Source: Candidatus Sumerlaeales bacterium
GTDB lineage: Bacteria; Sumerlaeota; Sumerlaeia; Sumerlaeales; Sumerlaeaceae
Direction of reading: 5' to 3'
Assembly: GCA_038243585.1 (NCBI GenBank)
Contig: JBBSQY010000070.1
Span: 1-11,617, forward strand
DNA length: 11,617 nt
The position numbers and the translations under genes were made by a program. Positions 1 through 11,617 of the stretch are shown piece after piece. Each line of letters begins with the position of its first letter. The first letter of the stretch is position 1. A model generated the notes under the pieces. The model did not search any database. It saw only the letters and a program-made list of their open reading frames with translations, and was not told the origin of the DNA.

Positions 1-2887
1 AGTGGTTTACGAGCAGGATTCCGTTCCTGACCGCAATGCCGAAGAGGGTCACAAAACCAACCATACTGGCGATCGACAGTACCGGAGCAATATAGACCCC
101 ACCCAGACCGAACAGGGCGCGGGTATTCGCGAGAATGGAAGGAGATTCCGTCAGGAAGACGGCAAGAATACCGCCAATAAGGGCCAGTGGCAGATTTATC
201 ATCACCAGGACGGCGGCCCGCGTTGAACCTAAAGCCATCTGAAGTAGTATTAGGATCAGCACGATCACACCCGATCCCATAATATAAATGGTTCGACTGG
301 CGGATTGCTGGGCCTCAAATTGTCCGCCATAGTGGACGGAATATCCGTATTTCGCCACTATGGGATCGACTTTCAGCTTTACGGCTTCCACCAGATCGCC
401 GAGGTTGCTTCCGACCGCCACGTTAAGCGAGATGGTGGCCTTGCGTCGACCATTTTCCCGGGCTATCAAATTGGAAGTGCTTTCGACTCCGATGGAGGCC
501 ACGTCTTCAAGCCGTACCAGGGCCCCGTCCCGACCCTGAAGAATGAGATCCCGAACCTGCTCGATTTTTTCTCTTTCATCATCTTCCAGCCGGACAACAA
601 GTTGAAGCCGACGGATCCCTTTGTTAACTTCGGCAACCACGCCACCGCTAAAGGCCAACTCAACCTGCTCGGCCGCTTTCGCGGGACTCAGTCCCCAGCG
701 GGCCAGATCGGCGGGACGAAATTTAATCGGCACCGAGTCGAGTAGAATTTCCCGGTTAGCCGCGACGTCGCGGGTGCCGGGCATGGAAATCAGAGCTCTC
801 TCTATCTCTTTCGCTATGCTGCGGAGTTTTCCAAGGTCGTCGCCAAAAACATTGATTGCGATGGCCGATGGAGTGCCGGACATTACGTGGCTCAGCCTGT
901 GCTCAATCGGCTGACCTATCATCGTGGTGATACCAGGTACGTTGCCCATCACCTCGTCAAGGGCGGCACGCACCTCCTCCTTGGCAAAGCCGGGCTTTAT
1001 AGACACGTCAATTTCTGACGAGCTTACCGGCTCCGCGTGTTCATCGCTTTCCGCGCGGCCCGTGCGCCTTACCACGCTTTTTACACCCGGGATTTCGCCC
1101 ATACGTTCTTCAACCCCAAGCGCTAATCGGTTGCTTTCCTCCAGAGACGTCCCCGGCGGCGCCATCAGGAAAACCGTAAAGCTGCCCTCGTTGAACTCCG
1201 GCAAAAAGCTGCTCCCGAAGGTGGAAGCTAACACAATAGACGCCACGGTGGCCGCCCCCGCCGCCATAAAAAGACTTTTCCTCCAGCGAAGGGCTGTCTT
1301 GAGAACCGGCTCGTAAAACATCTTTATCCAGCGGACCAGCGGACCATCGCCATGGTTGGCACCGCCGCCCAGTTTCCCGCGCAGCAACAGACTGCACAGC
1401 ACTGGCGTAACGGTAAGAGCAACGACGAGTGACGCCAAAATAGACGTGATGTAAGCGATCCCTAACGGCCTGAAAAATCGACCTTCCAGACCCTGAAGAA
1501 ACAGCAGCGGCACAAACACGATAATAATAATAATTGTCGCAAACACTACAGATGATCGTATCTCGTTGCTGGCGGAATAGACCACCTGGAGGTGCGATCG
1601 CTGGTGTTCCACCGCGAGCACGGCATTCTCTCGAAGCCTCCGAAAAACGTTTTCCACATCGATAATGGCGTCATCAACAAGCTCACCAATGGCCACCGCC
1701 AGTCCGCCCAGAGTCATAACATTAATGGAGAGACCCAGCGCCCATAGGATCAACAGGGCCACCGCCAACGACAGCGGCAACGCGGTGAGAGTAATCAGCG
1801 TGGTGCGCGCGTTCATTAAAAACAGCACGAGAATTATCGCGACAAAAATAGCCGCGTCTCTGGCCACATGCAGCACGTTCCGCACTGACAATGAAATAAA
1901 GTCGGACTGCCGCACAATGTGCCGGTTTATGACCATGCCCTCCGGCAGGCCCGGCTCGATCTGGTCCAGAACCTCGTCGATCTTTTCAGTCACCAACAGG
2001 GTATTAGCCCCCGGCGATTTCTGAATGCTGATGACAACTGCGGATTTTCCGCCCTCACTGGATGTGCCGCGTTTTGGCGCGCCAGCGATTACCACCTCGG
2101 CAACCTGCCCAATTGTTACGGGGGCGCCGTCTTGATACTTGATAACGCTCCCGCTGATATCGTCAACGGATTGCACCCGGCCCGACTGGCGAAGCGGTAA
2201 TTCCCGCCCTTCAACATTTGTCAGGTAACCCGCGCTGGCGATACTGTGAGCGTCCCGCGCGGCGTCTTCCACATCCTTAATGGTGAGGCCATAAAGCATC
2301 AGCCTGTCCTGCTTTACGTTTACCTGGTATTCCGGCAGTTCCCCGCCAATCGCAACCACCTGAGTGATACCAGGAATCCCCAGCAACTGGTTTCTTAAAT
2401 CAAACTCGGAAAAACCCCGGAGTTCGAGGTCTGAAACCTCACCCCCCGGCGACGACACGGAAATCAGCATTATCTCGCCGGTGAGGGAACTGATAGGCGC
2501 AATTTCGGCCACGGTGCCTTCAGGTAGATTTTCTCGAGCCCCCGTCAAGCGTTCGGAAACCAACTGGCGCGCGCGATAAATGTCTTCGCCCCAATCGAAT
2601 TCCACCCAGACAAGAGACAAACTCATTGCGCTGGCGCTTCGAATCCGCCGAACCCCCATCAGACCGTTGACCGCGCTTTCGAGCGGCAACGTAACATACT
2701 GTTCAACTTCATCGGCGGCCAGGCCGCGAGCTTCAGTGAGTATGACCACCGTTGGGGCGTTCAGCTCCGGAAACACGTCGACCGGCATCTGGGGGATTTT
2801 CCAGGCAGTAAAACCAAGCAGGAGCAGCGCGGCGGATATAACCAGCCCAGCGTGACTTAAGGAAAAGGCAATCAGCTTTTTCAGCAC
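1..2887 (-). CDS. CusA/CzcA-family heavy-metal efflux RND permease (3' end outside the window; about 962 codons visible)
   Basis: Not in the ORF track, translated by hand in segments that all share one frame. GTG start at 2887 lies 3 nt after the adaptor stop, with GAGGA just upstream. N-terminus MLKKLIAFSL...QMPVDVFPELNAPTVVILTEARGLAADEVEQYVTLPLESAVNG; TM4 LGGLAVAIGELVDDAIIDVENVFRRL; PEFNEGSF; near the window edge SIASMVGFVTLFGIAVRNGILLVNH. Confidence 0.96.
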   Translation of the reverse strand, partial: MLKKLIAFSLSHAGLVISAALLLLGFTAWKIPQMPVDVFPELNAPTVVILTEARGLAADEVEQYVTLPLESAVNGLMGVRRIRSASAMSLSLVWVEFDWGEDIYRARQLVSERLTGARENLPEGTVAEIAPISSLTGEIMLISVSSPGGEVSDLELRGFSEFDLRNQLLGIPGITQVVAIGGELPEYQVNVKQDRLMLYGLTIKDVEDAARDAHSIASAGYLTNVEGRELPLRQSGRVQSVDDISGSVIKYQDGAPVTIGQVAEVVIAGAPKRGTSSEGGKSAVVISIQKSPGANTLLVTEKIDEVLDQIEPGLPEGMVINRHIVRQSDFISLSVRNVLHVARDAAIFVAIILVLFLMNARTTLITLTALPLSLAVALLILWALGLSINVMTLGGLAVAIGELVDDAIIDVENVFRRLRENAVLAVEHQRSHLQVVYSASNEIRSSVVFATIIIIIVFVPLLFLQGLEGRFFRPLGIAYITSILASLVVALTVTPVLCSLLLRGKLGGGANHGDGPLVRWIKMFYEPVLKTALRWRKSLFMAAGAATVASIVLASTFGSSFLPEFNEGSFTVFLMAPPGTSLEESNRLALGVEERMGEIPGVKSVVRRTGRAESDEHAEPVSSSEIDVSIKPGFAKEEVRAALDEVMGNVPGITTMIGQPIEHRLSHVMSGTPSAIAINVFGDDLGKLRSIAKEIERALISMPGTRDVAANREILLDSVPIKFRPADLARWGLSPAKAAEQVELAFSGGVVAEVNKGIRRLQLVVRLEDDEREKIEQVRDLILQGRDGALVRLEDVASIGVESTSNLIARENGRRKATISLNVAVGSNLGDLVEAVKLKVDPIVAKYGYSVHYGGQFEAQQSASRTIYIMGSGVIVLILILLQMALGSTRAAVLVMINLPLALIGGILAVFLTESPSILANTRALFGLGGVYIAPVLSIASMVGFVTLFGIAVRNGILLVNH

Positions 2888-2890
2888 GGA

Positions 2891-4465
2891 TCAGTCCTCT
2901 CCCGGATGGAATGTTCCATCGGCGTGGAAATGTCCGCCTTCGGTGGCTTTTCCGGACCCTGTAAGTTTTAGCTCATAGACGCCGTGAAGAACGACTTCAT
3001 CGCCTTCCATCACACCGGATTTGACCACAACCCACTTGCCATCGTCAACGCCAAGGTCCGCCTCCATCCGTATCGCCTTGTCCGGGTCAGCCGGATCCCG
3101 CAGGAAAAAAATCTTCGTCAGATCGTCCTGGATAATCGCTTCCAAAGGAATCGAAAGCTCCGGATAGGCGGTGCCTTCAATTACGATCTCCGCTTGAGCG
3201 GCGACGCCGGACCTGGTCCATTTTGGCAGATCTTGCCCTGGGGTCGGGGTGACGATAAGGTTGAGAGTTCGCTGCTGGGAGTTGGCCTCTCCGCCAATGG
3301 TTAGCACACCGGTGACGGAAGTCTGCAGATCAAGACTGCCGCCCTGCGGCGGAACGATTACCGCGGACAATCCATTTTGCAGCTTGCCCAGATCGCTTTG
3401 TAGGGCGATACCGCGAAATCTGACAGCGTCCGGATCGACTGTTGTCATTATAAGCGACAAAGAATCCGCGTACGCCCCGTTGCTGCTGTCAATCGTTTGA
3501 ATTACGCCGGGAGCCGAAGCTTTCACCTCCACTCGGTCCACGGTCTGCCAATATGGAACACTCCCATCGGCTGTTTCTACCGATTTAAGAAATTCGTCTT
3601 CCGATACACCAAGAACTGATCGCGCTGTGGCTTCAGATAGCCTATGTTTAAGTTTAGCGGCCTCATATTCGGATAGCTTGGCCGCCAGCGTGGTCTGAAG
3701 CGTAGATGTCGTTCCAAAAGAACCGCTGCCTTCGGTGGCCAGTTGAAGGTATTGCTGCTCCATCTCGGCGCGTTTTTGTCCGGCCTCCGCCACGGCGCTT
3801 CTGGCCCCCGCCACATCCGATCGTGCCTGGGCAAGTTCACTCTGTTTTCCGCCTAACGCCTTTTGAAGCCGTTCCACCTGCTTAAGCCGCTGTTCCGCAA
3901 CCGCAAGCGCCTGCAGAGCACTTTCATTTTGCCCCTCGTCAGCTTCCAGCCGCTTCCGCGCAACATCCACCGCGGACTTAGACCCGCCGCGCGCCACCTG
4001 AGCGGTCATAAGAGCAGCCGATGTCATCCGTACGGCGGCTTCCGCATCAGCAATTTCCTGCTGCAGGCTGCGCCACTCACGAGAATCCAGGAGATAAAGC
4101 GGAGTACCAGTCGTAACCTGTTCATACTGGTCTACGAGCAGCTCAACTTTACCTGGCAATGGGGTCCGATACTCTCGGCGACCCGACGGCTGGCTTTCAA
4201 ATGTTCCCGGAACTCTTAATGTCCTGGAAACGGCACGACTTTCGACTTTGGCAAAAGTGATCCCCAGATTCTGCCGTACGGGCGCGGGAATTTCTATCCG
4301 ATTGGTTATGAGATCTTCTTCGGTTTCCAACGCAGTGTTTTCCGTTTGAGCGGTTGTTTCAGCGCCACTTGAAAGTTCCAGTAGTCGTCTGATTCCGATG
4401 ACGACTATCAACGCCAGTACGACGCCGATTAACACCCGCAAAACAACGGATGGTTTGAGTTTCAT
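2891..4465 (-). CDS. RND efflux periplasmic adaptor (membrane fusion protein, CzcB/CusB-like), about 524 aa
   Basis: N-terminal membrane anchor (VVLRVLIGVVLALIVVIGI), split lipoyl halves (RTPLPGKVELLV...GTPLYLLDS and EVKASAPGVI) around a long coiled coil, and a membrane-proximal motif (LSIPLEAI...LGVDDGKWVVVKSGVMEGDEVVLHG). Lies directly upstream of the permease. Start moved from 4501 to ATG 4465 because AGGAG (4476-4480) sits 10 nt upstream. Confidence 0.92.
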   Translation of the reverse strand: MKLKPSVVLRVLIGVVLALIVVIGIRRLLELSSGAETTAQTENTALETEEDLITNRIEIPAPVRQNLGITFAKVESRAVSRTLRVPGTFESQPSGRREYRTPLPGKVELLVDQYEQVTTGTPLYLLDSREWRSLQQEIADAEAAVRMTSAALMTAQVARGGSKSAVDVARKRLEADEGQNESALQALAVAEQRLKQVERLQKALGGKQSELAQARSDVAGARSAVAEAGQKRAEMEQQYLQLATEGSGSFGTTSTLQTTLAAKLSEYEAAKLKHRLSEATARSVLGVSEDEFLKSVETADGSVPYWQTVDRVEVKASAPGVIQTIDSSNGAYADSLSLIMTTVDPDAVRFRGIALQSDLGKLQNGLSAVIVPPQGGSLDLQTSVTGVLTIGGEANSQQRTLNLIVTPTPGQDLPKWTRSGVAAQAEIVIEGTAYPELSIPLEAIIQDDLTKIFFLRDPADPDKAIRMEADLGVDDGKWVVVKSGVMEGDEVVLHGVYELKLTGSGKATEGGHFHADGTFHPGED

Positions 4466-4473
4466 TAAAATTG

Positions 4474-4636
4474 ATCTCCTGACAGAGCCAAAAAGCCCCA
4501 TCTAAACACGGGAAGTTCATGAGGGAGCAGTGTTTTCTAGGGCCCGACGCACCAAGGCGTGGAAACAAAACAACTGCGCCGATACTTTCTCCGACCATAA
4601 AGGGCGGATAGGATAAACGACTATCTGTTAGGAGAT
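4474..4636 (-). promoter_or_regulatory. Putative translational attenuator: long-range anti-SD/SD helix sequestering the adaptor RBS
   Basis: mRNA 5' arm AUCUCCUAACAGA (4636-4624, covering Ile-Ser-stop of the leader ORF) pairs 12/13 with UCUGUCAGGAGAU (4486-4474, containing the AGGAG SD). An internal helix GCAG(U)UGUUUU / AAAACACUGC (4577-4567 / 4536-4527) shortens the loop. Confidence 0.7.
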
Positions 4637-5134
4637 GGCGGGGGGAGCACGAAGCTGCGGCGGCGGCCCGGAAGACAGGCTTCGCCAGTGTTGCTTATCA
4701 TCACGGGGCCAGTTGACACCCTGAGGAATGGTACAAAACGTTTCGATTCGGGCTAAAAGCACCACAAACAGTGAAGCATTAAAAAATTGGGGTGCCGGTT
4801 TCCTAATCTTCGAAAATTCAAGATGATCAGTCGCCGTGTGATGTTGATGTTGGGATGAATGCTCCGAATCGCAGGCCGGTTCCCCCTGATGATTATCATC
4901 TACGGGAGAATGTGAATCGTGGTCATCAGTTTCAAAATGCTGAAAGTCCGATTGATGATTATGACCGTGATAGTGCGTTTCATGCTCATCAAAGATGACA
5001 TGAGCAAAACTGGCCGCCTGCGACAATGGCAGTATCAACGCCATAAAGATTCCAAGGAGCAACCGCAGCTTGCATTGACGGCCTGCCCGCTTCAATTTTC
5101 CAAGGGAAAAAAATATTTTGGATGTGCTTGGCAT
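4628..5134 (-). CDS. His-rich exported leader protein with C-terminal RAPP arrest motif (CutF/CruR/DUF2946-like architecture)
   Basis: 168 aa. Basic n-region plus hydrophobic h-region (LLLGIFMALILPLSQAASFA), 15 His in residues 45-104, a second hydrophobic stretch at 117-128, and the ending GPPPQLRAPPAIS*. Same strand as, and immediately upstream of, the metal-efflux genes. Confidence 0.82.
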   Translation of the reverse strand: MPSTSKIFFSLGKLKRAGRQCKLRLLLGIFMALILPLSQAASFAHVIFDEHETHYHGHNHQSDFQHFETDDHDSHSPVDDNHQGEPACDSEHSSQHQHHTATDHLEFSKIRKPAPQFFNASLFVVLLARIETFCTIPQGVNWPRDDKQHWRSLSSGPPPQLRAPPAIS

Positions 5135-5140
5135 TGATAA

Positions 5141-5146
5141 AGATTA
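5141..5146 (-). promoter_or_regulatory. Putative sigma70-type -10 element (TAATCT) for a leaderless leader-ORF transcript
   Basis: TAATCT-TTATCA-ATG(5134), with no SD upstream. The same layout precedes polA and the prenyl synthase gene. Confidence 0.55.
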
Positions 5147-5455
5147 ATTTGTTTAAAAAATGACACCGGTAAAAAATTCTGTTACGCTCGTTTTTACTTC
5201 AGACATAAGTTGAACCTGAGCCGATTCTGCGGGTAGTTATATTAGGGTATTACAAGAGCGTAACTGCAACTGTGTCGATTATCACCTCTCCGCCCTTAAG
5301 TTCCCGTGCGGGAATTCCATCGCCTACATTCCCGTAACAGAACTACAGCCTTGAACAATACAGACATACCCCGCCAGCCCGACCCCAAAACTCATTAAGT
5401 AATTAATAGAACAGGTTAAACCACTCCAGAACCACCGCTTACATATTAATTAATT

Positions 5456-5492
5456 AAAAAAAAGGAGGCCTGTGGATAATTCCGCAATCCCT
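5456..5492 (-). terminator. Possible intrinsic terminator after polA
   Basis: Starting about 15 nt after the polA stop, an imperfect hairpin (AGGGAUUGCGGA-AUUA-UCCACAGGCCUCC) is followed by a U8 tract (A8 at 5456-5463). The stem has mismatches. Confidence 0.4.
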
Positions 5493-5506
5493 GATTTCAT
5501 GTCGCG

Positions 5507-8230
5507 CTAACACTCATTCCAGTTATCTCCCCAACCCGCTTCCACCAGCACTGGGACGGACAGGGGCAGGGCGTATTCCATTTCTGTTAGCACCAGTTCC
5601 CGCAGCTTTTCCAGTTCTTCCTTTGGCACATCAAAAATCAGTTCATCATGCACCTGCATGATCATTCGGGCCGCATACCCTTCGTCCTTCATTCGTTTGT
5701 CGATGCGGATCATGGCGATCTTGATCATGTCAGCGCTGGTGCCCTGGATCGGAGCGTTTGTGGCGACCCGCTCCGCCGCGTTTCGGGCGTTAAAATTCTT
5801 AGATCGGATGTCTGCCAGGTAACGCCGCCGCCCGCTAACGGTTTCCACATACCCGTTGTTTCGCGCGTCCACCAGGGTCTGATCGAGCCAGCTTCGGACG
5901 CCCGCATAGCCCTTAAAGTACTCTTCAATAAACGAACGTGCCGTGGCAAACGGAATCCTCAGGCGCGAACTCAGTCCCTGTGCTCCCATGCCATAGATGA
6001 CCCCGAAGTTGACCATCTTGGCCACCCCGCGCATTTCGCTGCTCACCATTTCCACCGGGATGTCGTAAACCTTCGACGCTGTGAGCGTATGGACATCAAT
6101 GCCCGTGTTGAACGCCTCTACGAGCGCTGGGTCGCCTGTCACGTGTGCCAGCACACGCAGTTCGATCTGGCTGTAATCCGCCGCCAGCAAAACTCGATCT
6201 TTCGAGGATGGTACAAATCCCTGCCGAATTTTTCGCCCCCACTCCGTCCGGATGGGAATGTTTTGGAGATTCGGATCGCTGCTACTCAGGCGGCCCGTGG
6301 CGGCTACCGCCTGATTATAGCTGGTATGTATGCGCCCGGTTTCTCGGCATATCAGCGTCGGCAATACATCAATATAGGTGCCTTTCAGCTTCTCAAACTG
6401 GCGATATTCCGCCAGCAGACCCGGCACTTCGTGCTCGCAGGCTAATTGCTCGAGCACTTCAATGTCCGTAGAAAACCCGGTTTTTTTCGATTTCACCGGC
6501 TTTAATCCCAGGTCTTCAAACAGCACCTGCGCCACCTGCTTAGGGGAGCCGATGTTAAACTCTTTGTCGCACTTCTGGTAAATGTCCTGCCGAAGCCGGT
6601 CCAGGTGCGCGTCTGTTTCCACGGCCAGCTGCTTAAAATGTGGCCGATCAATACAAACGCCTGTCGATTCCATATCCATCAGGACCTGCACCAGCGGCAG
6701 TTCAATGGTCTCCAACAGATTCCGCGCATTAAGTTCATCCAGCTTTGGATCAAAGTACTGCGTAAGTTGAAGCGTAACATCCGCATCCGCCGCAGCGTAT
6801 TGCGTGGCCGCCTCCAGTTCCACCTTATCAAAGGTCATCTGGGTCTTGCCTTTGCCGATTAAATCCGTGATTTTCGTCATCTGTATTCGCAGCACATCCG
6901 CCGCCAGGTCTTTCAGGCCGTGGTTCCGCCGATCCGCGTTGATCAGATAACTGGCCAGCAGGGAATCTCCCGATGCCTTGTCCAGCCCCAGCCCGTGACG
7001 CCGCAGCAGATGCCAGTCAAACTTCAGGTTGTGTGCATACTTTTTGATCGTCGGATCAGCCAACACCGGCGCCAATTCTCGCTGCAGCACGCTGAGTGGC
7101 AACTGCTCTACCTCTTCGCGCACGCCGAGGGGGCCAGTGTGCGCCAGCGGAATGTAAACCGCGTCGTTTGGCGTCACGCAGAGAGAGACGCCAACCAGCT
7201 CAGCCACGATAACCTGCAACCGGTCTGTTTCTACATCCAGCGCAACAAATCCCGCGTCCCGGATCTTTTGGACAAATTCCCGAAGTTCATCTTCCGTGGT
7301 AATGGCACGGTAGTTTGTCTCACGATCCGGAAAATTTACAGCGGCTTCCTCCTGACTGGATCCCGTTTCCAGATCGCTCACCAGCTTGCGGAATTCCAGT
7401 TCGCGATAAATAGCCAGCAGGGACGGCAGATCCGGCTCCGCCATTTCGCATCCGTCTGCATCGCAATCCATCGGCACATCATAACGCAGAGCAACCAGCT
7501 TCTGGCTCAGCAGCGCGCTCTCCCGCCCCGCTTCTACGTATTCCGCCTGCTTTCCTTTCAGCTCACCCGCGTGCTTTAGCACCTCTTCCAGCGTCCCGTA
7601 CTTTTCCAGAAGCGTTGCCGCGGTTTTCATTCCGATGCGGGGGATGCCTGGAATGTTGTCCGACGTATCTCCCACCATAGAAAGCAGATCACCGATCTGT
7701 TCTGGGTACACGCCCATTTTTGCCATGACAGCCTCGCGGTCGTACACCGTTTCAGAATCCGGCTGCAGGCGGAGCACCCGCACCTGCTCGTTCACCAGTT
7801 GAAACAGATCCTTGTCCGCCGTCACCACATGAACATTATATCCCTTGGCCGTCGCCTGTCGCGTCAGTGTCGCGATCACATCGTCTGCCTCGAAGCCGGG
7901 CGCTGTAATCACCTTCATGTTCATGCTGGTCAGGATCCGGTTGATGTACTCCATTTGCTGCCCAAAATCTTCCGGCGGCGCGCCGCGGTTTGCCTTGTAA
8001 GCTTCATACAGTTCATGGCGAAACGTCGGATGCTTCGTATCAAACACAACCACCATGTGGCGCGGCGCTCGCGATTTTATCAGCCGGTGCAATATCGCCA
8101 CAAATCCATAAACCGCGTTTGTGGGTATTCCTGTGGAAGTGGAAAGCTGGCGAATTCCATGATAAGCCTTAAAAACCTGGCTGTGGCCATCAATTATGTA
8201 AATCTCTTTAGGGGCGGGTGAGTCTGTCAT
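5507..8230 (-). CDS. polA: DNA polymerase I
   Basis: 907 aa. 5'-3' exonuclease domain (IIDGHS, PTNAVYGF, YKANR, EADDVIATL, GDTSDNIPG), 3'-5' exonuclease motifs with acidic residues retained (LDVET, HNLKFD, YAAADA), and polymerase motifs TGRLSSSDPNLQNIP, DYSQIELR, KMVNFGVIYG and QVHDEL. Confidence 0.99.
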   Translation of the reverse strand: MTDSPAPKEIYIIDGHSQVFKAYHGIRQLSTSTGIPTNAVYGFVAILHRLIKSRAPRHMVVVFDTKHPTFRHELYEAYKANRGAPPEDFGQQMEYINRILTSMNMKVITAPGFEADDVIATLTRQATAKGYNVHVVTADKDLFQLVNEQVRVLRLQPDSETVYDREAVMAKMGVYPEQIGDLLSMVGDTSDNIPGIPRIGMKTAATLLEKYGTLEEVLKHAGELKGKQAEYVEAGRESALLSQKLVALRYDVPMDCDADGCEMAEPDLPSLLAIYRELEFRKLVSDLETGSSQEEAAVNFPDRETNYRAITTEDELREFVQKIRDAGFVALDVETDRLQVIVAELVGVSLCVTPNDAVYIPLAHTGPLGVREEVEQLPLSVLQRELAPVLADPTIKKYAHNLKFDWHLLRRHGLGLDKASGDSLLASYLINADRRNHGLKDLAADVLRIQMTKITDLIGKGKTQMTFDKVELEAATQYAAADADVTLQLTQYFDPKLDELNARNLLETIELPLVQVLMDMESTGVCIDRPHFKQLAVETDAHLDRLRQDIYQKCDKEFNIGSPKQVAQVLFEDLGLKPVKSKKTGFSTDIEVLEQLACEHEVPGLLAEYRQFEKLKGTYIDVLPTLICRETGRIHTSYNQAVAATGRLSSSDPNLQNIPIRTEWGRKIRQGFVPSSKDRVLLAADYSQIELRVLAHVTGDPALVEAFNTGIDVHTLTASKVYDIPVEMVSSEMRGVAKMVNFGVIYGMGAQGLSSRLRIPFATARSFIEEYFKGYAGVRSWLDQTLVDARNNGYVETVSGRRRYLADIRSKNFNARNAAERVATNAPIQGTSADMIKIAMIRIDKRMKDEGYAARMIMQVHDELIFDVPKEELEKLRELVLTEMEYALPLSVPVLVEAGWGDNWNEC

Positions 8231-8236
8231 AAAGAG

Positions 8237-8267
8237 AGACTACCAGCAGGGAAGAGAAAAGCGTCAA
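8237..8267 (-). promoter_or_regulatory. Putative sigma70 promoter of polA (TTGACG-N19-TAGTCT with extended -10 TG), probably leaderless
   Basis: TTGACG at 8267-8262, TG-G-TAGTCT at 8245-8237, then 6 nt (CTCTTT) to ATG 8230. The upstream stretch is pyrimidine-rich with no SD. The 19-nt spacer is long. Confidence 0.55.
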
Positions 8268-8349
8268 CGCCGAAGAGTATGTTTTTCCTCGTTCTATTTG
8301 AGCAACATTGGCGTCAGATAGCCAGGTAGTTAATTATCAGCGTTTTCAC

Positions 8350-8922
8350 TCACTGATACAGCGCGTGCTTTGCTATGTAATCGAGAACAATTGCAGGCAC
8401 AGCACCGGTTGGTGTTTCGCCGGCAGCGAGGGTTTGGCGGATTCTCGTGCTGCTTACATCTGGCAGGGCGGCCTCAAATGCAGTTCCGCCGTGGATGACA
8501 CCTTCCGAGATACGAGGGATGACCAGCAGGGGAGCTATGATGGTGAGTTCTTTGAACGCGCGCCACTTTTGTGTATCCGGCAAAATGTCGCCGCCGACCA
8601 AGAGGCGAAAATTTTCGTCCGGACGCAGCCGCGTGAGCTCCTGAACAGTGTCTATGGTATAGCTGACGCCGCCAATCTGCCGCTCCACATCGGTAAGTTC
8701 AACGGCGTCGCCGAGGTGTGCGAACGCGAGGCGGCACATGGCGAGGCGGTGATCAAACGGCGGCAAAGGCTTGCCGAATGGATGCGCGAAGCTGGGCACG
8801 ATCAGCACTTTTTTCAGATTCCAACGGAGTAGCGCGTAATGACAGGCGAGCACATGACCCATGTGCGGCGGGCTGAAGCTGCCACCGAACAGTCCGGTGC
8901 AGCCCTGTGCTTCGTCTTCCAT
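8350..8922 (-). CDS. nadD: Nicotinate-nucleotide adenylyltransferase
   Basis: 190 aa with LFGGSFSPPHMGH (HxGH), HPFGK, SYTIDTV, LLVGGD, VSSTRIR and a VLDYIAKHALY C-terminus. Confidence 0.93.
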   Translation of the reverse strand: MEDEAQGCTGLFGGSFSPPHMGHVLACHYALLRWNLKKVLIVPSFAHPFGKPLPPFDHRLAMCRLAFAHLGDAVELTDVERQIGGVSYTIDTVQELTRLRPDENFRLLVGGDILPDTQKWRAFKELTIIAPLLVIPRISEGVIHGGTAFEAALPDVSSTRIRQTLAAGETPTGAVPAIVLDYIAKHALYQ

Positions 8923-8934
8923 TCGGGGAGTCCG

Positions 8935-9957
8935 TTAGACCGTTCGAGCGGTGAGGTATTCCGTCACTTCGAGCAGACGGACGCGCAGACCATCCGGCAG
9001 TGGCTGGAGCGCGGCGATCGCTTGTTGTTTCAAATCTTCACAACGGGCGTCCGCCGCCTGCATGGCGCCACACTTTTCAAATATCGAAAGAACAGTCTGC
9101 ACATCGGCATCCGTGGTGTCATCGCGCGGCAGATCAAGAATCGTCATCAAGCGATTTTGATCTTCCGCCGCCGCATGCTCCAGGGCATGAGCCACAAGGA
9201 AGCTGCGTTTTCCTTCTCGAATATCATTACCGATAGAACCGCGCCCTTTGCCGTGGGTGAGGTCGATCACGTCGTCGCGAATCTGAAACATGGGGCCAAT
9301 CATGAGGCCGAATGTGCCAAGGGCTGCTGTCACATCCGCTGCGGCATCGGCACAAATCCCGCCGGCGATCATGGGTGCTGCCAGATAATGCCCGGTCTTT
9401 TCCGTTACCAGGTGCATGTAATCGTCTACGGTAATACGCGATTCCCGGGCGTTCATATCCAAGGCTTGACCGCGATGGGTATGGTCCAGGGTCGAGCGCA
9501 TCAGCTCAAACAAGCGCACTTGGCGATCCGGGGGAGTACTATAGCTGTCCAGTAGCAGGGCTTCAAAAACTTTTGTGAAGAGGTAGTCGCCAATATTGAT
9601 GGCGTGGGGCAGACCGTATTTTTTCCAGACGGCAGGGCGACCGCGCCGCATCTCGTCGCCGTCTTCTATGTCGTCATGCACGAGACAAAAGTTGTGCATC
9701 AGTTCAATGGCCGCGGCGAAGGGCAGGGCCGGGCGGGCGTTGCCGCTCAGCTCCCGGCAAACCAGCAGGCAGAGCAGCGGACGGATGCGTTTACCGGAAT
9801 TGCCGCCATCCGGATCAAGACCCAGAGAATAGGCCAGACCATCGTCCAAATTGGCAATGGGGTTTTTGTGAGGTGTTATGATCTTGCGCAGGGTGTCGTC
9901 GACCAAACCCTGCGATTCATTAAAAAAGCTATCCAGTTCCGGAGAAAGACGGTTCAT
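8935..9957 (-). CDS. Short-chain polyprenyl diphosphate synthase (type-I / IdsA-like GGPP synthase)
   Basis: 340 aa with GKRIRP, FARM HNFCLVHDDIEDGDEMRRG, AINIGD, GQALD, KT and SARM FQIRDDVID, followed by DIREGKRS. Confidence 0.93.
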   Translation of the reverse strand: MNRLSPELDSFFNESQGLVDDTLRKIITPHKNPIANLDDGLAYSLGLDPDGGNSGKRIRPLLCLLVCRELSGNARPALPFAAAIELMHNFCLVHDDIEDGDEMRRGRPAVWKKYGLPHAINIGDYLFTKVFEALLLDSYSTPPDRQVRLFELMRSTLDHTHRGQALDMNARESRITVDDYMHLVTEKTGHYLAAPMIAGGICADAAADVTAALGTFGLMIGPMFQIRDDVIDLTHGKGRGSIGNDIREGKRSFLVAHALEHAAAEDQNRLMTILDLPRDDTTDADVQTVLSIFEKCGAMQAADARCEDLKQQAIAALQPLPDGLRVRLLEVTEYLTARTV

Positions 9958-9963
9958 AGAAAT

Positions 9964-9969
9964 AGATTA
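9964..9969 (-). promoter_or_regulatory. Putative -10 element (TAATCT) for a leaderless prenyl synthase-nadD transcript
   Basis: TAATCT-ATTTCT-ATG(9957) within the 45-nt divergent gap; no SD. Confidence 0.5.
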
Positions 9970-10002
9970 CACATCCAGAGGTTTGTTGGCGGGAACGATC
10001 TT

Positions 10003-10818
10003 ATGAAGAAAAAATTCCCTGAACGGAAAGACTTAGGTCTTTCCGAAAATGATACCCAACTTAACACTATCCGCCTGCAGAAATTCCTTTCGGAGGCGGG
10101 GTTGTGCTCACGTCGCGGCGCGGCAGAAATAGTGGATGCCCGGCGAGTGATGGTAGATGGCGTGCTGGCTGACAGCCTGGGCATGCGTATTGACCCGAAA
10201 CGTTCGAAGGTGCTGGTCGACGGCAGGCCGGTGCAATCGGTACGCGCTCGTTCGTTTACATACCTTGCTCTCAATAAACCTCGTGGTTTTATTACCACGT
10301 TGGATGATCCGGGCGGTCGAAAGACCGTGCTTGATCTGTTAAAGGGCGTGCGCGACCGCGTTGTGCCGGTGGGGCGACTCGATCGTGATTCCGAAGGTCT
10401 ATTACTTTTTACGAACGATGGCGACCTCATTTATCGCCTGACGCACCCGAAATATGAGATTGAAAAGGAATACCAGGTCACAGTAAACGGACTGCCACGC
10501 GAAGACGACCTGCAGGACATGCGTGAGGGTATTGAGATTGAAGGCCAGGTTACGCTGCCTGCACGCGTTTGGATTCGTGAGGTGCGCGAAGGAGCCGGAG
10601 AGGGCGGCGCGCCGGTGACTGTAATGGGCGTGGTGCTGAAAGAGGGCCGCAAGCGCCAGGTGCGGCGCATGTGTGAAGCTGTGGGTCTGGATGTGCGCCG
10701 ACTGATGCGTGTGCGTGAGGGCAAGATCGAACTGGGCGACATGAAGCAAGGCAGCTACCGGGTGCTCAAGCAGAATGAAGTGAAGGCGCTGAAAAAAGAG
10801 ACGGGATTGATAGAGTAG
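10003..10818 (+). CDS. rRNA pseudouridine synthase, RsuA/RluB family (271 aa)
   Basis: S4 domain RLQKFLSEAGLCSRR, YLALNKPRG, catalytic PVGRLDRDSEGLLLFTNDG, LTHPKYEIEKEY and EGRKRQVRRMCEAVG. Start moved to ATG 10003 because the track's 9604 extension overlaps the prenyl synthase gene antisense. Confidence 0.95.
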   Translation: MKKKFPERKDLGLSENDTQLNTIRLQKFLSEAGLCSRRGAAEIVDARRVMVDGVLADSLGMRIDPKRSKVLVDGRPVQSVRARSFTYLALNKPRGFITTLDDPGGRKTVLDLLKGVRDRVVPVGRLDRDSEGLLLFTNDGDLIYRLTHPKYEIEKEYQVTVNGLPREDDLQDMREGIEIEGQVTLPARVWIREVREGAGEGGAPVTVMGVVLKEGRKRQVRRMCEAVGLDVRRLMRVREGKIELGDMKQGSYRVLKQNEVKALKKETGLIE

Positions 10819-10826
10819 CATACGGA

Positions 10827-10870
10827 ATTTGACGCGAAGAGGCGACAGAAGAGCAGAAGCAGAAAGAACA
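10827..10870. repeat. Left, purine-rich arm of a REP-like imperfect inverted repeat
   Basis: ATTTGACGCGAAGAGGCG... pairs with 11257-11275 on the + strand, using two G-T wobbles, one bulge and one mismatch. Confidence 0.4.
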
Positions 10871-10881
10871 GTTTCTTTGTA

Positions 10882-11181
10882 TTATTTGGCTGCAACTATA
10901 CCAAAAGCATACGGCTTGAACTGAAATTCTTCACCAGTAATATGTTGAAGTTTTCCACCTTTTTGTTTGAAATCAGATACTAACTCCAGAGCTAAACCAA
11001 TAGCCAGACACAAAGCTTGAAGCGAGTTATCTCCGTATATGTCAATTTCTCTCTGGAGGGGCTGCACGGACACAGGACATGCCCATGCATTTTCAACTTG
11101 GTAGGGTAGACCAATCTCCACAATTATTTTAAAGCGCTCTTCATTCGGCCGTTGTCCATAAATTGTTGTTTGAGCAATCAC
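10882..11181 (-). CDS. Small hypothetical protein, DUF6968-like
   Basis: 99 aa, GTG start with an AGGTGA SD-like sequence upstream. The pattern IGLP...WACPV...IYGDNSLQALCLAI resembles DUF6968 as I recall it (not searched). About 42% GC by hand count over 240 nt. Confidence 0.7.
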   Translation of the reverse strand: MIAQTTIYGQRPNEERFKIIVEIGLPYQVENAWACPVSVQPLQREIDIYGDNSLQALCLAIGLALELVSDFKQKGGKLQHITGEEFQFKPYAFGIVAAK

Positions 11182-11243
11182 AAATCACCTGTGGCTTTCT
11201 CCTATTTCTACTTCTAAAAAAATGCTTTTCTTACTCTTGTTTT

Positions 11244-11275
11244 TCTTTGTGTCCTCCGCGTCTTTGTGTCGAAAT
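11244..11275. repeat. Right, pyrimidine-rich arm of a REP-like element with an internal direct repeat
   Basis: TCTTTGTGTC-CTCCGCG-TCTTTGTGTC-GAAAT: a 10-nt direct repeat at 11244-11253 and 11261-11270, complementary to the arm at 10827-10844. Confidence 0.5.
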
Positions 11276-11284
11276 GTCGGCTAC

Positions 11285-11617
11285 TCACTTCCGCGTTTCC
11301 TTTAATAGTTTAAGCGTTTCCCAGATGGTTTTGAACAGGGGCAGTTTGCTACGGCTTCGTTTTTGATCGTAGCGCAGCACAAAGGGAATCTCTGTAATGC
11401 GCTGGGTCATATGGCTTAAGCGGACCAGCAGTTCATCGGTGCAGGCGAACCCTTCACGCTGGATCAGTCCGTCACCATATTTGGCCAGCGCGTCACTTAT
11501 CAGTCCGGCATGGTAAGCCCTGAACCCACAAGTGTAGTCCCGGACGCCAGGAAGACGCAGAATTGTTTGAAATACGTAACGAGCAGTGCGGCTGAGCAGA
11601 GGACGAAATGGCGGAAC
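11285..11617 (-). CDS. Family 2 glycosyltransferase (polyprenol/dolichol-phosphate glycosyltransferase-like), C-terminal 110 aa only
   Basis: Not in the track, translated by hand: VPPFRPLLSRTARYVFQTILRLPGVRDYTCGFRAY...GFACTDELL...EIPFVLRYDQKRSRSKL...RK*. DxTxGFRAY, EIP and SK are typical of DPM-synthase-like GT2 enzymes. Confidence 0.88.
   Translation of the reverse strand, partial: VPPFRPLLSRTARYVFQTILRLPGVRDYTCGFRAYHAGLISDALAKYGDGLIQREGFACTDELLVRLSHMTQRITEIPFVLRYDQKRSRSKLPLFKTIWETLKLLKETRK

Follow-up and report, generated by a model that had tools for sequence, protein, structure and literature searches.

What is the role of a small open reading frame (ORF) that ends 162 nucleotides (nt) ahead of the genes for a heavy-metal efflux pump, and why should its last codons be complementary to the first such gene's Shine-Dalgarno (SD) sequence? 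The question is raised by a locus of Candidatus Sumerlaeales bacterium (assembly GCA_038243585.1, contig JBBSQY010000070.1, positions 1-11,617; this whole stretch of 11,617 nt is the window referred to below). Four successive genes lie on the minus strand of the window: polA, a 168-amino-acid (aa) ORF that we call P0001, a periplasmic adaptor (membrane-fusion protein) and a permease of the resistance-nodulation-division (RND) type. P0001 stands directly upstream of the adaptor on the same strand, and the 162-nt spacer runs from its stop codon to the adaptor's AUG. An original prediction held that a helix joins the end of P0001 to the adaptor's SD and is placed where a ribosome stalled at an RAPP motif would melt it; our analysis supports this interpretation in part. 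On balance we lean, by a modest degree, toward a stall-opened SD mask of the CutF/SecM kind on this heavy-metal RND operon, probably combined with Rho-type attenuation.

The predicted helix is built from an inverted repeat between positions 4474-4486 (ATCTCCTGACAGA) and 4624-4636 (TCTGTTAGGAGAT), which lie 137 nt apart and are complementary at 12 of 13 positions (92%), exactly as first described when recovered by a repeat search. Read as minus-strand mRNA, the 5′ arm (AUCUCCUAACAGA, 4624-4636) is an anti-SD made up of the leader's Ile and Ser codons AUC-UCC, its stop codon UAA and the bases CAGA, and the 3′ arm (UCUGUCAGGAGAU, 4474-4486) holds the adaptor's SD, AGGAG (4480-4476). The last G of AGGAG lies 10 nt from the AUG at 4465, and the sole mismatch sets the middle A of UAA opposite C4481. 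When 221 nt were folded with RNAfold, the helix was present in both the minimum free energy (MFE) and centroid structures; it recurred in the MFE structures computed for contexts of 258, 321 and 360 nt, where its base pairs have probabilities of 0.77-1.0, and it dominates the predicted ensemble. The bases AGGAGA have a mean predicted probability of being unpaired of 0.017 in the free mRNA, so that the SD is predicted to be masked in the folded RNA as had been claimed. The 137-nt insert between the arms (4487-4623, minus strand) is predicted, from the list of its helices, to form a multibranch set of hairpins. A proposed extension of the helix by GUCG/UGGC pairing did not hold up: it is absent from the MFE structure, in which GUCG (4621-4618) pairs with CGGC (4581-4578).

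The masked element is a credible SD, because SD-like tetramers are enriched genome-wide at the spacing at which AGGAG stands (-15); the enrichment, at -15 to -10, was measured before the first ATG of 2,456 long ORFs of this genome. We disfavour ATG 4501 as an alternative adaptor start, since it lacks an SD and the deletion of 1 nt at 4490 would put it out of frame. That deletion occurs in one contig of a related metagenome run (X2, see below) at a depth of 3.4 and is possibly an error.

How would a stalled ribosome meet this helix? In RAPP arrest the P and A sites are occupied by the motif's two Pro codons, according to the available text of two studies (PMC12992588, PMC10951233). The RAPP codons of P0001, CGU GCU CCC CCC, lie at 4651-4640 on the minus strand and encode residues 162-165 of 168; by the literature, the P site of the expected arrest would hold CCC 4645-4643, and its A site CCC 4642-4640. 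The 5′ arm begins one codon (GCC) past the last Pro and, counted from the first base of the expected P-site codon, extends from +10 to +22; these coordinates agree with the placement at +10 originally proposed. Within the arm AUCUCC, the partner of GGAGAU, occupies +10 to +15. A ribosome covers its mRNA to about +15 and unwinds it at about +11.

To place numbers on this geometry, we refolded the RNA with a ribosome footprint forced unpaired and recomputed the cost of opening the SD. In the free mRNA, opening CAGGAGAU costs 9.44 kcal/mol, and opening the 34-nt 30S site costs 12.86 kcal/mol. With a ribosome stalled at RAPP and a footprint of -12 to +15 these values are 4.27 and 7.83 kcal/mol, and with the shorter footprint of -12 to +12 they are 5.82 and 9.36 kcal/mol; for a ribosome at the stop codon, whose P site holds Ser and whose A site holds UAA, they are 4.67 and 8.17 kcal/mol. 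Masking the footprint, a check of the kind that the original prediction had put forward, thus cuts the predicted opening cost of the SD by about 5 kcal/mol, which under common models would amount to a roughly tenfold change in initiation. From this modelling the helix is plausibly a mask of moderate strength.

The leader that carries the 5′ arm is unusual. P0001 (5134-4628 on the minus strand by translation, stop UAA 4630-4628) has an N-terminal hydrophobic, signal-like segment, a His-rich middle (16 His) and the C-terminus GPPPQLRAPPAIS-stop, and it matches no family in Pfam or NCBIfam. Only three relatives were detected: P0004 (62% identity), from a search of 5.8 billion protein clusters, and P0005 (48%) and P0006 (33%), from a hidden Markov model (HMM) search of 1.84 billion representatives. 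All four members terminate in PPxLRAPP-x-x-S-stop, with LRAPP, the three codons after it and the stop invariant at an overall identity of 33-62%. Just 5′ of RAPP, three Pro codons CCG CCG CCG (4658-4666, minus strand) form a poly-proline pause motif in the sequence; in the alignment PP is kept in all four members and PPP in two of them. The residues that follow the A-site Pro would be unmade during arrest and yet are always three in number, which fits a constraint at the level of the mRNA; with n = 4, it is only suggestive that the constant three-residue tail reflects such a constraint.

Other features of the family bear on possible export and metal binding. Every member carries the N-terminal motif ALxLPxxQAAxFxH, of which ALxLPxxQAA resembles a signal-peptidase site, and the N-terminal segment has a Kyte-Doolittle 19-residue mean of 1.65-2.23 in 4/4 members, a measure of hydropathy only. 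Each member has 14-20 His, with H45, H56, H66, H82, H98, H99 and H104 conserved; the four-member alignment has no invariant Cys column and no CxxC/CxxxC motif. The leader is probably inserted or exported co-translationally. A second hydrophobic segment was also observed at residues 118-136 of P0001 (window ~4727-4783, minus strand), with Kyte-Doolittle values of 1.16-1.95 in all four members. It ends ~28 residues before the arrest point, which is where a membrane-inserting segment could pull on an arrested chain.

P0001 appears to stand apart from the DUF2946 proteins: neither it nor P0004 matches PF11162 (DUF2946) even at E up to 10, and by these tests, with no profile match and no CxxC, the family falls outside DUF2946. 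Across 13 genomes of the family, 13 of the order and 75 of the phylum, a search for the P0001 gene found the window's own copy only; two phylum matches at E ~0.07 (L003 and L004) fall within frames of 389 and 405 aa. A protein atlas gave only clusters without a name and DUF6769, at 0.94-0.95; few features are shared, and we treat these as leads only.

Is the complementarity more than expected? The bare inverted repeat is unremarkable, and what is unusual is its position. Inverted pairs of 13 nt or longer, within 200 nt, number 36 in the window; among the 25 listed, 2 show complementarity of at least 92%, compared with ~1.4 expected by our own estimate. Up to one mismatch allowed, the 13-mer occurs at 5 other places in the genome, about the number expected by chance. 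A miniature inverted-repeat transposable element (MITE) or other terminal inverted repeats were considered and ruled out, as the 175-bp stretch is single-copy in the 3.43-Mb assembly (52.5% G+C). Position was assessed as the mean probability that the seven bases -15 to -9 pair with a 27-nt window at the 'stop' position. None of 973 random genomic places of the same geometry reached the observed 0.955, and 1.8% reached 0.5; among places with AGGAG at the same offset, 1 of 527 reached 0.955. Because the windows were fixed after the helix had been seen, the true p is larger than these counts imply, ~0.01 and not 0.002.

Similar arrangements recur in related pump operons. Homologues of the adaptor (42-53% identity) are present in 9 of the 75 phylum genomes, the window's own included. 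In 6 of the 8 relatives another small ORF, Cys/His-rich and ending in IFxPPK(L/V)xx-stop, stands at the head of the operon; such leaders were found at loci L006, L007, L008, L009, L011, L013 and L018, in adaptor or outer-membrane factor (OMF) operons. None of these PPK leaders is related to P0001 by hhalign, in which the four-member alignment and the relatives' leaders give a probability of 0.5%; hence two leader families with a C-terminal Pro-Pro head related pump operons. The PPK leader of L008 is weakly DUF2946-like (PF11162, E = 0.073). With a score fixed beforehand, the best 6-nt stretch of the ribosome-binding site (RBS, -20 to +3) was compared with a window about the leader stop (-24 to +15) for pairing. 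The window's own locus (L005) scores 0.98, and its arm begins at +10, counted from the first codon of the last Pro-Pro; high scores were likewise obtained for L006 (0.95, arm from +16), L007 (0.97, from +11) and L018 (0.81, from +13), and no arm was present in L009 (0.09), L011 (0.00) or L013 (0.01). A score of at least 0.8 is therefore reached at 4 of 7 loci with the window's own and at 3 of 6 without it, against a background of 2-10% of 120 places per locus, and a Fisher combination of the six empirical tail fractions, by our own arithmetic, gives p ~0.01. This recurrence is moderate support, because the loci are kin and their RBS zones differ, and by these models the recurring helices would be analogous to the helix at P0001 and not homologous with it. 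L008 (G008:C56, same genus) was left unscored, as the spacer after its PPK leader reads as N, and so were L010 and L017, in which no PPK-type leader was seen. At L017 (G053:C31), where the gene order is OMF-adaptor-pump, we observed a frame upstream of the OMF gene (2777-3637, plus strand) that ends in the His/Asp-rich run HSHDDGDHGHSH, not in Pro-Pro.

Strain variation was followed in close relatives of the locus, which are contigs from three other metagenome runs (X2, X3 and X4; those of X2 and X4 end at 4641 and 4635). Among the 40 of 133 differences listed, from which those within ~31 nt of contig ends are apparently absent, the SD arm shows no difference in X2, X3 or X4; the same differences include, in the stretch that separates the arms, at least 10 substitutions and two deletions of 1 nt each, and at least 2 substitutions in the spacer from the SD to the AUG.

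Taken together, these results lead us to propose the following sequence of events. In the resting mRNA, the leader's last two codons, its stop codon and the next 4 nt would pair with the SD region of the adaptor, and the helix would close the 137-nt multibranch domain and hold adaptor initiation low. The nascent leader, once exported, would present its His-rich and putatively metal-binding stretch outside the cytoplasm. Upon arrest at RAPP the leading edge of the ribosome would cover +10 to about +15, which is AUCUCC, and for the duration of the arrest the SD would be free for a second ribosome and the adaptor could be made. Binding of metal to the nascent chain would lengthen the arrest and so raise pump output; metal should act in this direction because of the logic of an efflux pump and the precedent of CutF, an analogy from which prolongation by metal is drawn. 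We infer the occurrence of the arrest, the export of the leader, its binding of metal and the direction of regulation.

Several observations weigh against this proposal. The helix was originally put forward as independent RNA-level support for a leader-peptide model; the helix itself stands, but its independence is incomplete because the 5′ arm overlaps conserved codons. More generally, the 5′ arm lies within coding sequence and the 3′ arm is the SD, so both are constrained for other reasons. The 221-nt fold as a whole has no exceptional stability (z = -1.27). Of 20,000 window pairs drawn at random from the genome, 1,096 match the RNAduplex energy of the stop-codon and RBS windows (-16.6 kcal/mol), an energy that by itself falls at the 5.5th percentile; under the broader score, 2.5% of background samples from the locus itself match the observed value. 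After masking of the footprint, both G's of GGAG remain ~95% paired through several alternatives, each with a probability of at most 0.3. In silico, a ribosome that terminates at the stop codon is as able to open the helix as one that has stalled (4.67 versus 4.27 kcal/mol), so that the helix alone does not require arrest; by analogy with SecM, arrest would act through dwell time and not through access.

The comparative evidence has similar weak points. The 5′ arm could be compared in one run only and at 9 of its 13 positions (4628-4636), which are unchanged. L009, L011 and L013 have no long-range pairing, and their RBSs lie in local hairpins. Homologue DNA was sought in genome contigs, where 43 (P0004) and 139 (four-member alignment) stretches matched the pattern, and in metagenome contigs, where 339 and 198 did, and none of these was confirmed. 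The 3′ end of 16S rRNA, which would carry the organism's own anti-SD, was not found in the incomplete assembly. The leader's ATG at 5134 has no SD-like motif (5135-5180) and is preceded by an A/U-rich stretch, and leader and adaptor thus seem to use different initiation signals. Finally, export of the leader is judged from hydropathy alone.

What else could explain the locus? The first alternative is that attenuation, either Rho-dependent as in CruR or intrinsic, is the main output: an arrested ribosome would hide a Rho-utilisation (rut) site, allowing RNA polymerase to continue into the pump genes, and the helix would be incidental, or auxiliary in that it keeps the spacer untranslated so that Rho can act. 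A candidate rut site exists as a C>G bubble at 4602-4680 on the minus strand (C 43.6% and G 20.5% in a 78-nt window centred on 4641). This bubble is the strongest of the 900-nt region 4300-5200, and its position coincides exactly with RAPP, the stop codon and the beginning of the spacer; its C-richness, however, is largely forced by Pro and Ala codons. CruR offers a parallel, as that system combines an RAPP leader, a structured intergenic region of 162 bp, a C>G bubble reaching from the end of the leader into this region, and Rho dependence in the available account (PMC9426467), and the spacer here is likewise 162 nt. For the intrinsic variant, a terminator-like hairpin (4529-4495, -12.5 kcal/mol) followed by UUUUU (4494-4490) abuts the SD arm (whole element 4490-4529, minus strand) and might serve for weak intrinsic termination or for pausing. 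The signal is weak, since the scanned region contains 2 terminator-like sites against 1.7 in shuffles, and both hairpin and U-tract vary in related strains (1-nt deletions at 4490 and 4504, a substitution at 4506). Attenuation also leaves unexplained why the masked partner is precisely the SD. As the main output we consider it unlikely. It is compatible with the SD mask, however, and Rho attenuation is likely a partner of the mask rather than a replacement for it.

A second alternative is plain translational coupling, in which ribosomes that finish the leader briefly open the helix, with neither arrest nor sensing of metal by the nascent chain; any regulation would then sit at a promoter. The opening costs given above fit this view, since in these models a ribosome at the stop codon makes the SD as much cheaper to open as does one stalled at RAPP, and the 5′ arm overlaps the stop codon. 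In L006, moreover, the arm runs from +16 to +25, which is beyond the reach of a Pro-Pro-stalled ribosome and within that of a terminating one. Coupling of this sort does not account for the invariance of LRAPP in all four members despite their divergence, and it gives a His-rich exported leader no role. RAPP is also an experimentally established strong arrest motif that proteomes avoid, according to the available text of PMC12992588, and a spacer of 162 nt was judged incompatible with coupling of the reinitiation type in that of PMC9426467. We therefore regard plain coupling as quite unlikely.

The original prediction would have been undermined by a separate promoter between the arms, and no minus-strand sigma-70-like promoter was found there by a scan that leaves other promoter types uncovered; the only minus-strand sigma-70-like site in the scan lies at 4916-4889, inside the leader. 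A riboswitch was considered and is unsupported, with no Rfam match up to E = 10 in 4300-5500.

The weakest alternative is that pyrimidine-rich codons beside a Pro-rich motif match a purine-rich SD by chance and serve no function in vivo, for example because the helix never forms co-transcriptionally across 137 nt, and although the ordinary frequency of such repeats in the window, the duplex energy, the fold z-score and the 3 of 6 related loci without pairing fit this idea, we hold it very unlikely in view of the positional controls (0/973 and 1/527), the analogous helices in the other 3 of 6 operons over the 2-10% background with their combined p, and the start of the arm at +10, the leading edge of the expected stalled ribosome.

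A stall-opened SD mask, then, is the reading that we carry forward, and a more ambitious version of it can be drawn. In this version P0001 would found a very rare class of His-based nascent-chain metal sensors unrelated to DUF2946, with an mRNA-fixed anti-SD spacing, two outputs, a force generator and a general +10 to +16 rule. The class would comprise 4 sequences in ~15 billion and would have gone unrecognised; the mRNA, not the peptide, would fix 'RAPP + 3 codons + stop' and thereby set the anti-SD at +10. The long-range helix would couple SD unmasking with protection of the C-rich rut site, and the second hydrophobic segment, ~28 residues from the peptidyl-transferase centre, would be the force generator, its membrane insertion modulated by metal binding. 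As a whole, this combination seems doubtful to us.

The genes around the leader fit a metal-efflux context. We read the leader, the spacer, the adaptor and a CusA/CzcA-type RND pump as one minus-strand operon, downstream of polA (8230-5507). The adaptor (4465-2891, start AUG 4465-4463) matches Pfam HlyD_D23 and HlyD_3 and, weakly, the NCBIfam models RND_mfp and CzcB/NccB. The permease (2887-2, continuing past the end of the window) belongs to the CusA/CzcA heavy-metal efflux family (Pfam ACR_tran, 2e-211), its best NCBIfam model being TIGR00914 (602.5 bits); its start lies 4 nt downstream of the adaptor stop, and the pump gene is probably coupled to adaptor translation. The C-terminus of the adaptor is His-rich (GGHFHADGTFHPGED, window 2891-2935, minus strand), a tail that is kept in homologues (for example, GGHFHADGTFHTGTDH and AGHFHSDGTFHAGKD) and that may bind metal. 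Further upstream, the region between polA and the leader (5299-5344 and 5395-5457) contains an imperfect 17-nt inverted repeat with the palindrome TTCCCGTGCGGGAA and an AT-rich 14-nt inverted repeat, 93% complementary with arms 35 nt apart; an operator, a promoter or a terminator may be what these elements represent.

If the proposal is true, its consequences reach beyond this locus. Sensing of metal by a nascent chain is a recent finding (CruR in 2022, CutF in 2023-2025) and has been worked out in two proteobacterial DUF2946 proteins only. The principle would extend to a heavy-metal RND pump in a small uncultured phylum, of which 75 species genomes were searched here, and to a leader that would sense through histidines and that carries both PPP and RAPP. 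It would also yield a geometric rule: in four operons, which between them have two unrelated leader families, the anti-SD would start between +10 and +16 as counted from the P-site codon of the arrest; such a rule could serve to find more switches of this kind. The locus would in addition provide a compact natural part that responds to metal through translation and in which SD unmasking could be compared with Rho attenuation. Should the helix turn out to be passive, the locus would still illustrate long-range translational coupling in a clean form.

How does the locus compare with systems already described? Across phyla, small RAPP/RGPP ORFs with localisation signals have been surveyed upstream of metal genes, and the available text names as downstream classes TonB-dependent receptors, YcnI, PCu(A)C and PepSY, while 'efflux' occurs nowhere in the main text (PMC12992588, Fujiwara et al., EMBO J 2025). 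P0001 resembles the arrest peptides of that kind in that its motif lies near the C-terminus of a small ORF (<300 aa) that stands upstream on the same strand. Among the papers that our literature search listed, only the CutF work ties arrest leaders to RND pumps, and the supplements of PMC12992588 and PMC9973294 may list comparable loci.

SecM-secA, MifM-yidC2 and ApdA/ApdP (PMC10951233, PMC7897499, PMC10987492) are alike in having a C-terminal arrest motif, an N-terminal localisation signal and a sequestered RBS. Their arrest motifs include RAG/P in SecM and RAPP in ApdA/ApdP, and the stalled ribosome opens an RBS stem-loop (PMC10951233, as far as its available text goes). What these leaders monitor, by the available accounts, is the Sec or YidC machinery, whereas here a metal pump and a His-rich leader would point to metal as the input. 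The features of SD sequestration are also present at the P0001 locus in prediction, the SD being paired in the free mRNA and the masking strand lying within reach of an arrested ribosome. P0001 has 168 aa and SecM ~170.

CruR (Bp2923)-bfrG of Bordetella pertussis shares with the P0001 locus a C-terminal RAPP, a structured 162-nt intergenic region and a C>G bubble (available text of PMC9426467). CruR itself, however, belongs to DUF2946 and carries CxxC, it acts through Rho-dependent termination, and copper relieves its arrest; in the model as set out in the available text, SD masking is not a part (PMC9426467). Its target, by the same account, is an uptake receptor that is shut off by metal, whereas an efflux pump needs the opposite logic.

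Another close likeness is to CutF-cutO of Rhodobacter capsulatus, which combines an export signal, a metal motif, a Pro-rich stall end, an mRNA-shielded SD that stalling is proposed to unmask, and a metal-detoxification gene. There the anti-SD stem-loop was validated by mutation, and CutF requires its signal peptide, Cu motif and Pro-rich end (available text of PMC9973294 and bioRxiv 10.1101/2025.02.05.636593); CutF-like leaders are most often found upstream of RND components of the OEP/CusB/CusA type (available text of PMC9973294). P0001 shares with these leaders the Pro-rich/RAPP end and the position upstream of metal-homeostasis genes. In contrast to CutF, it has neither a match to DUF2946 (PF11162) nor a CxxxC/CxxC motif, its candidate ligands being 14-20 His, and its stall motif is RAPP preceded by PPP and not PPP alone. 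The mask at the P0001 locus is a long-range helix that overlaps the leader's stop codon, whereas that of cutF-cutO is described in the available text as an intergenic stem-loop, and P0001 has a second hydrophobic segment ~28 residues before the arrest point. A switch of this kind is thus already in print, CutF-like leaders before RND metal pumps included, and the locus described here is plausibly a new case of the CutF/CruR/SecM kind.

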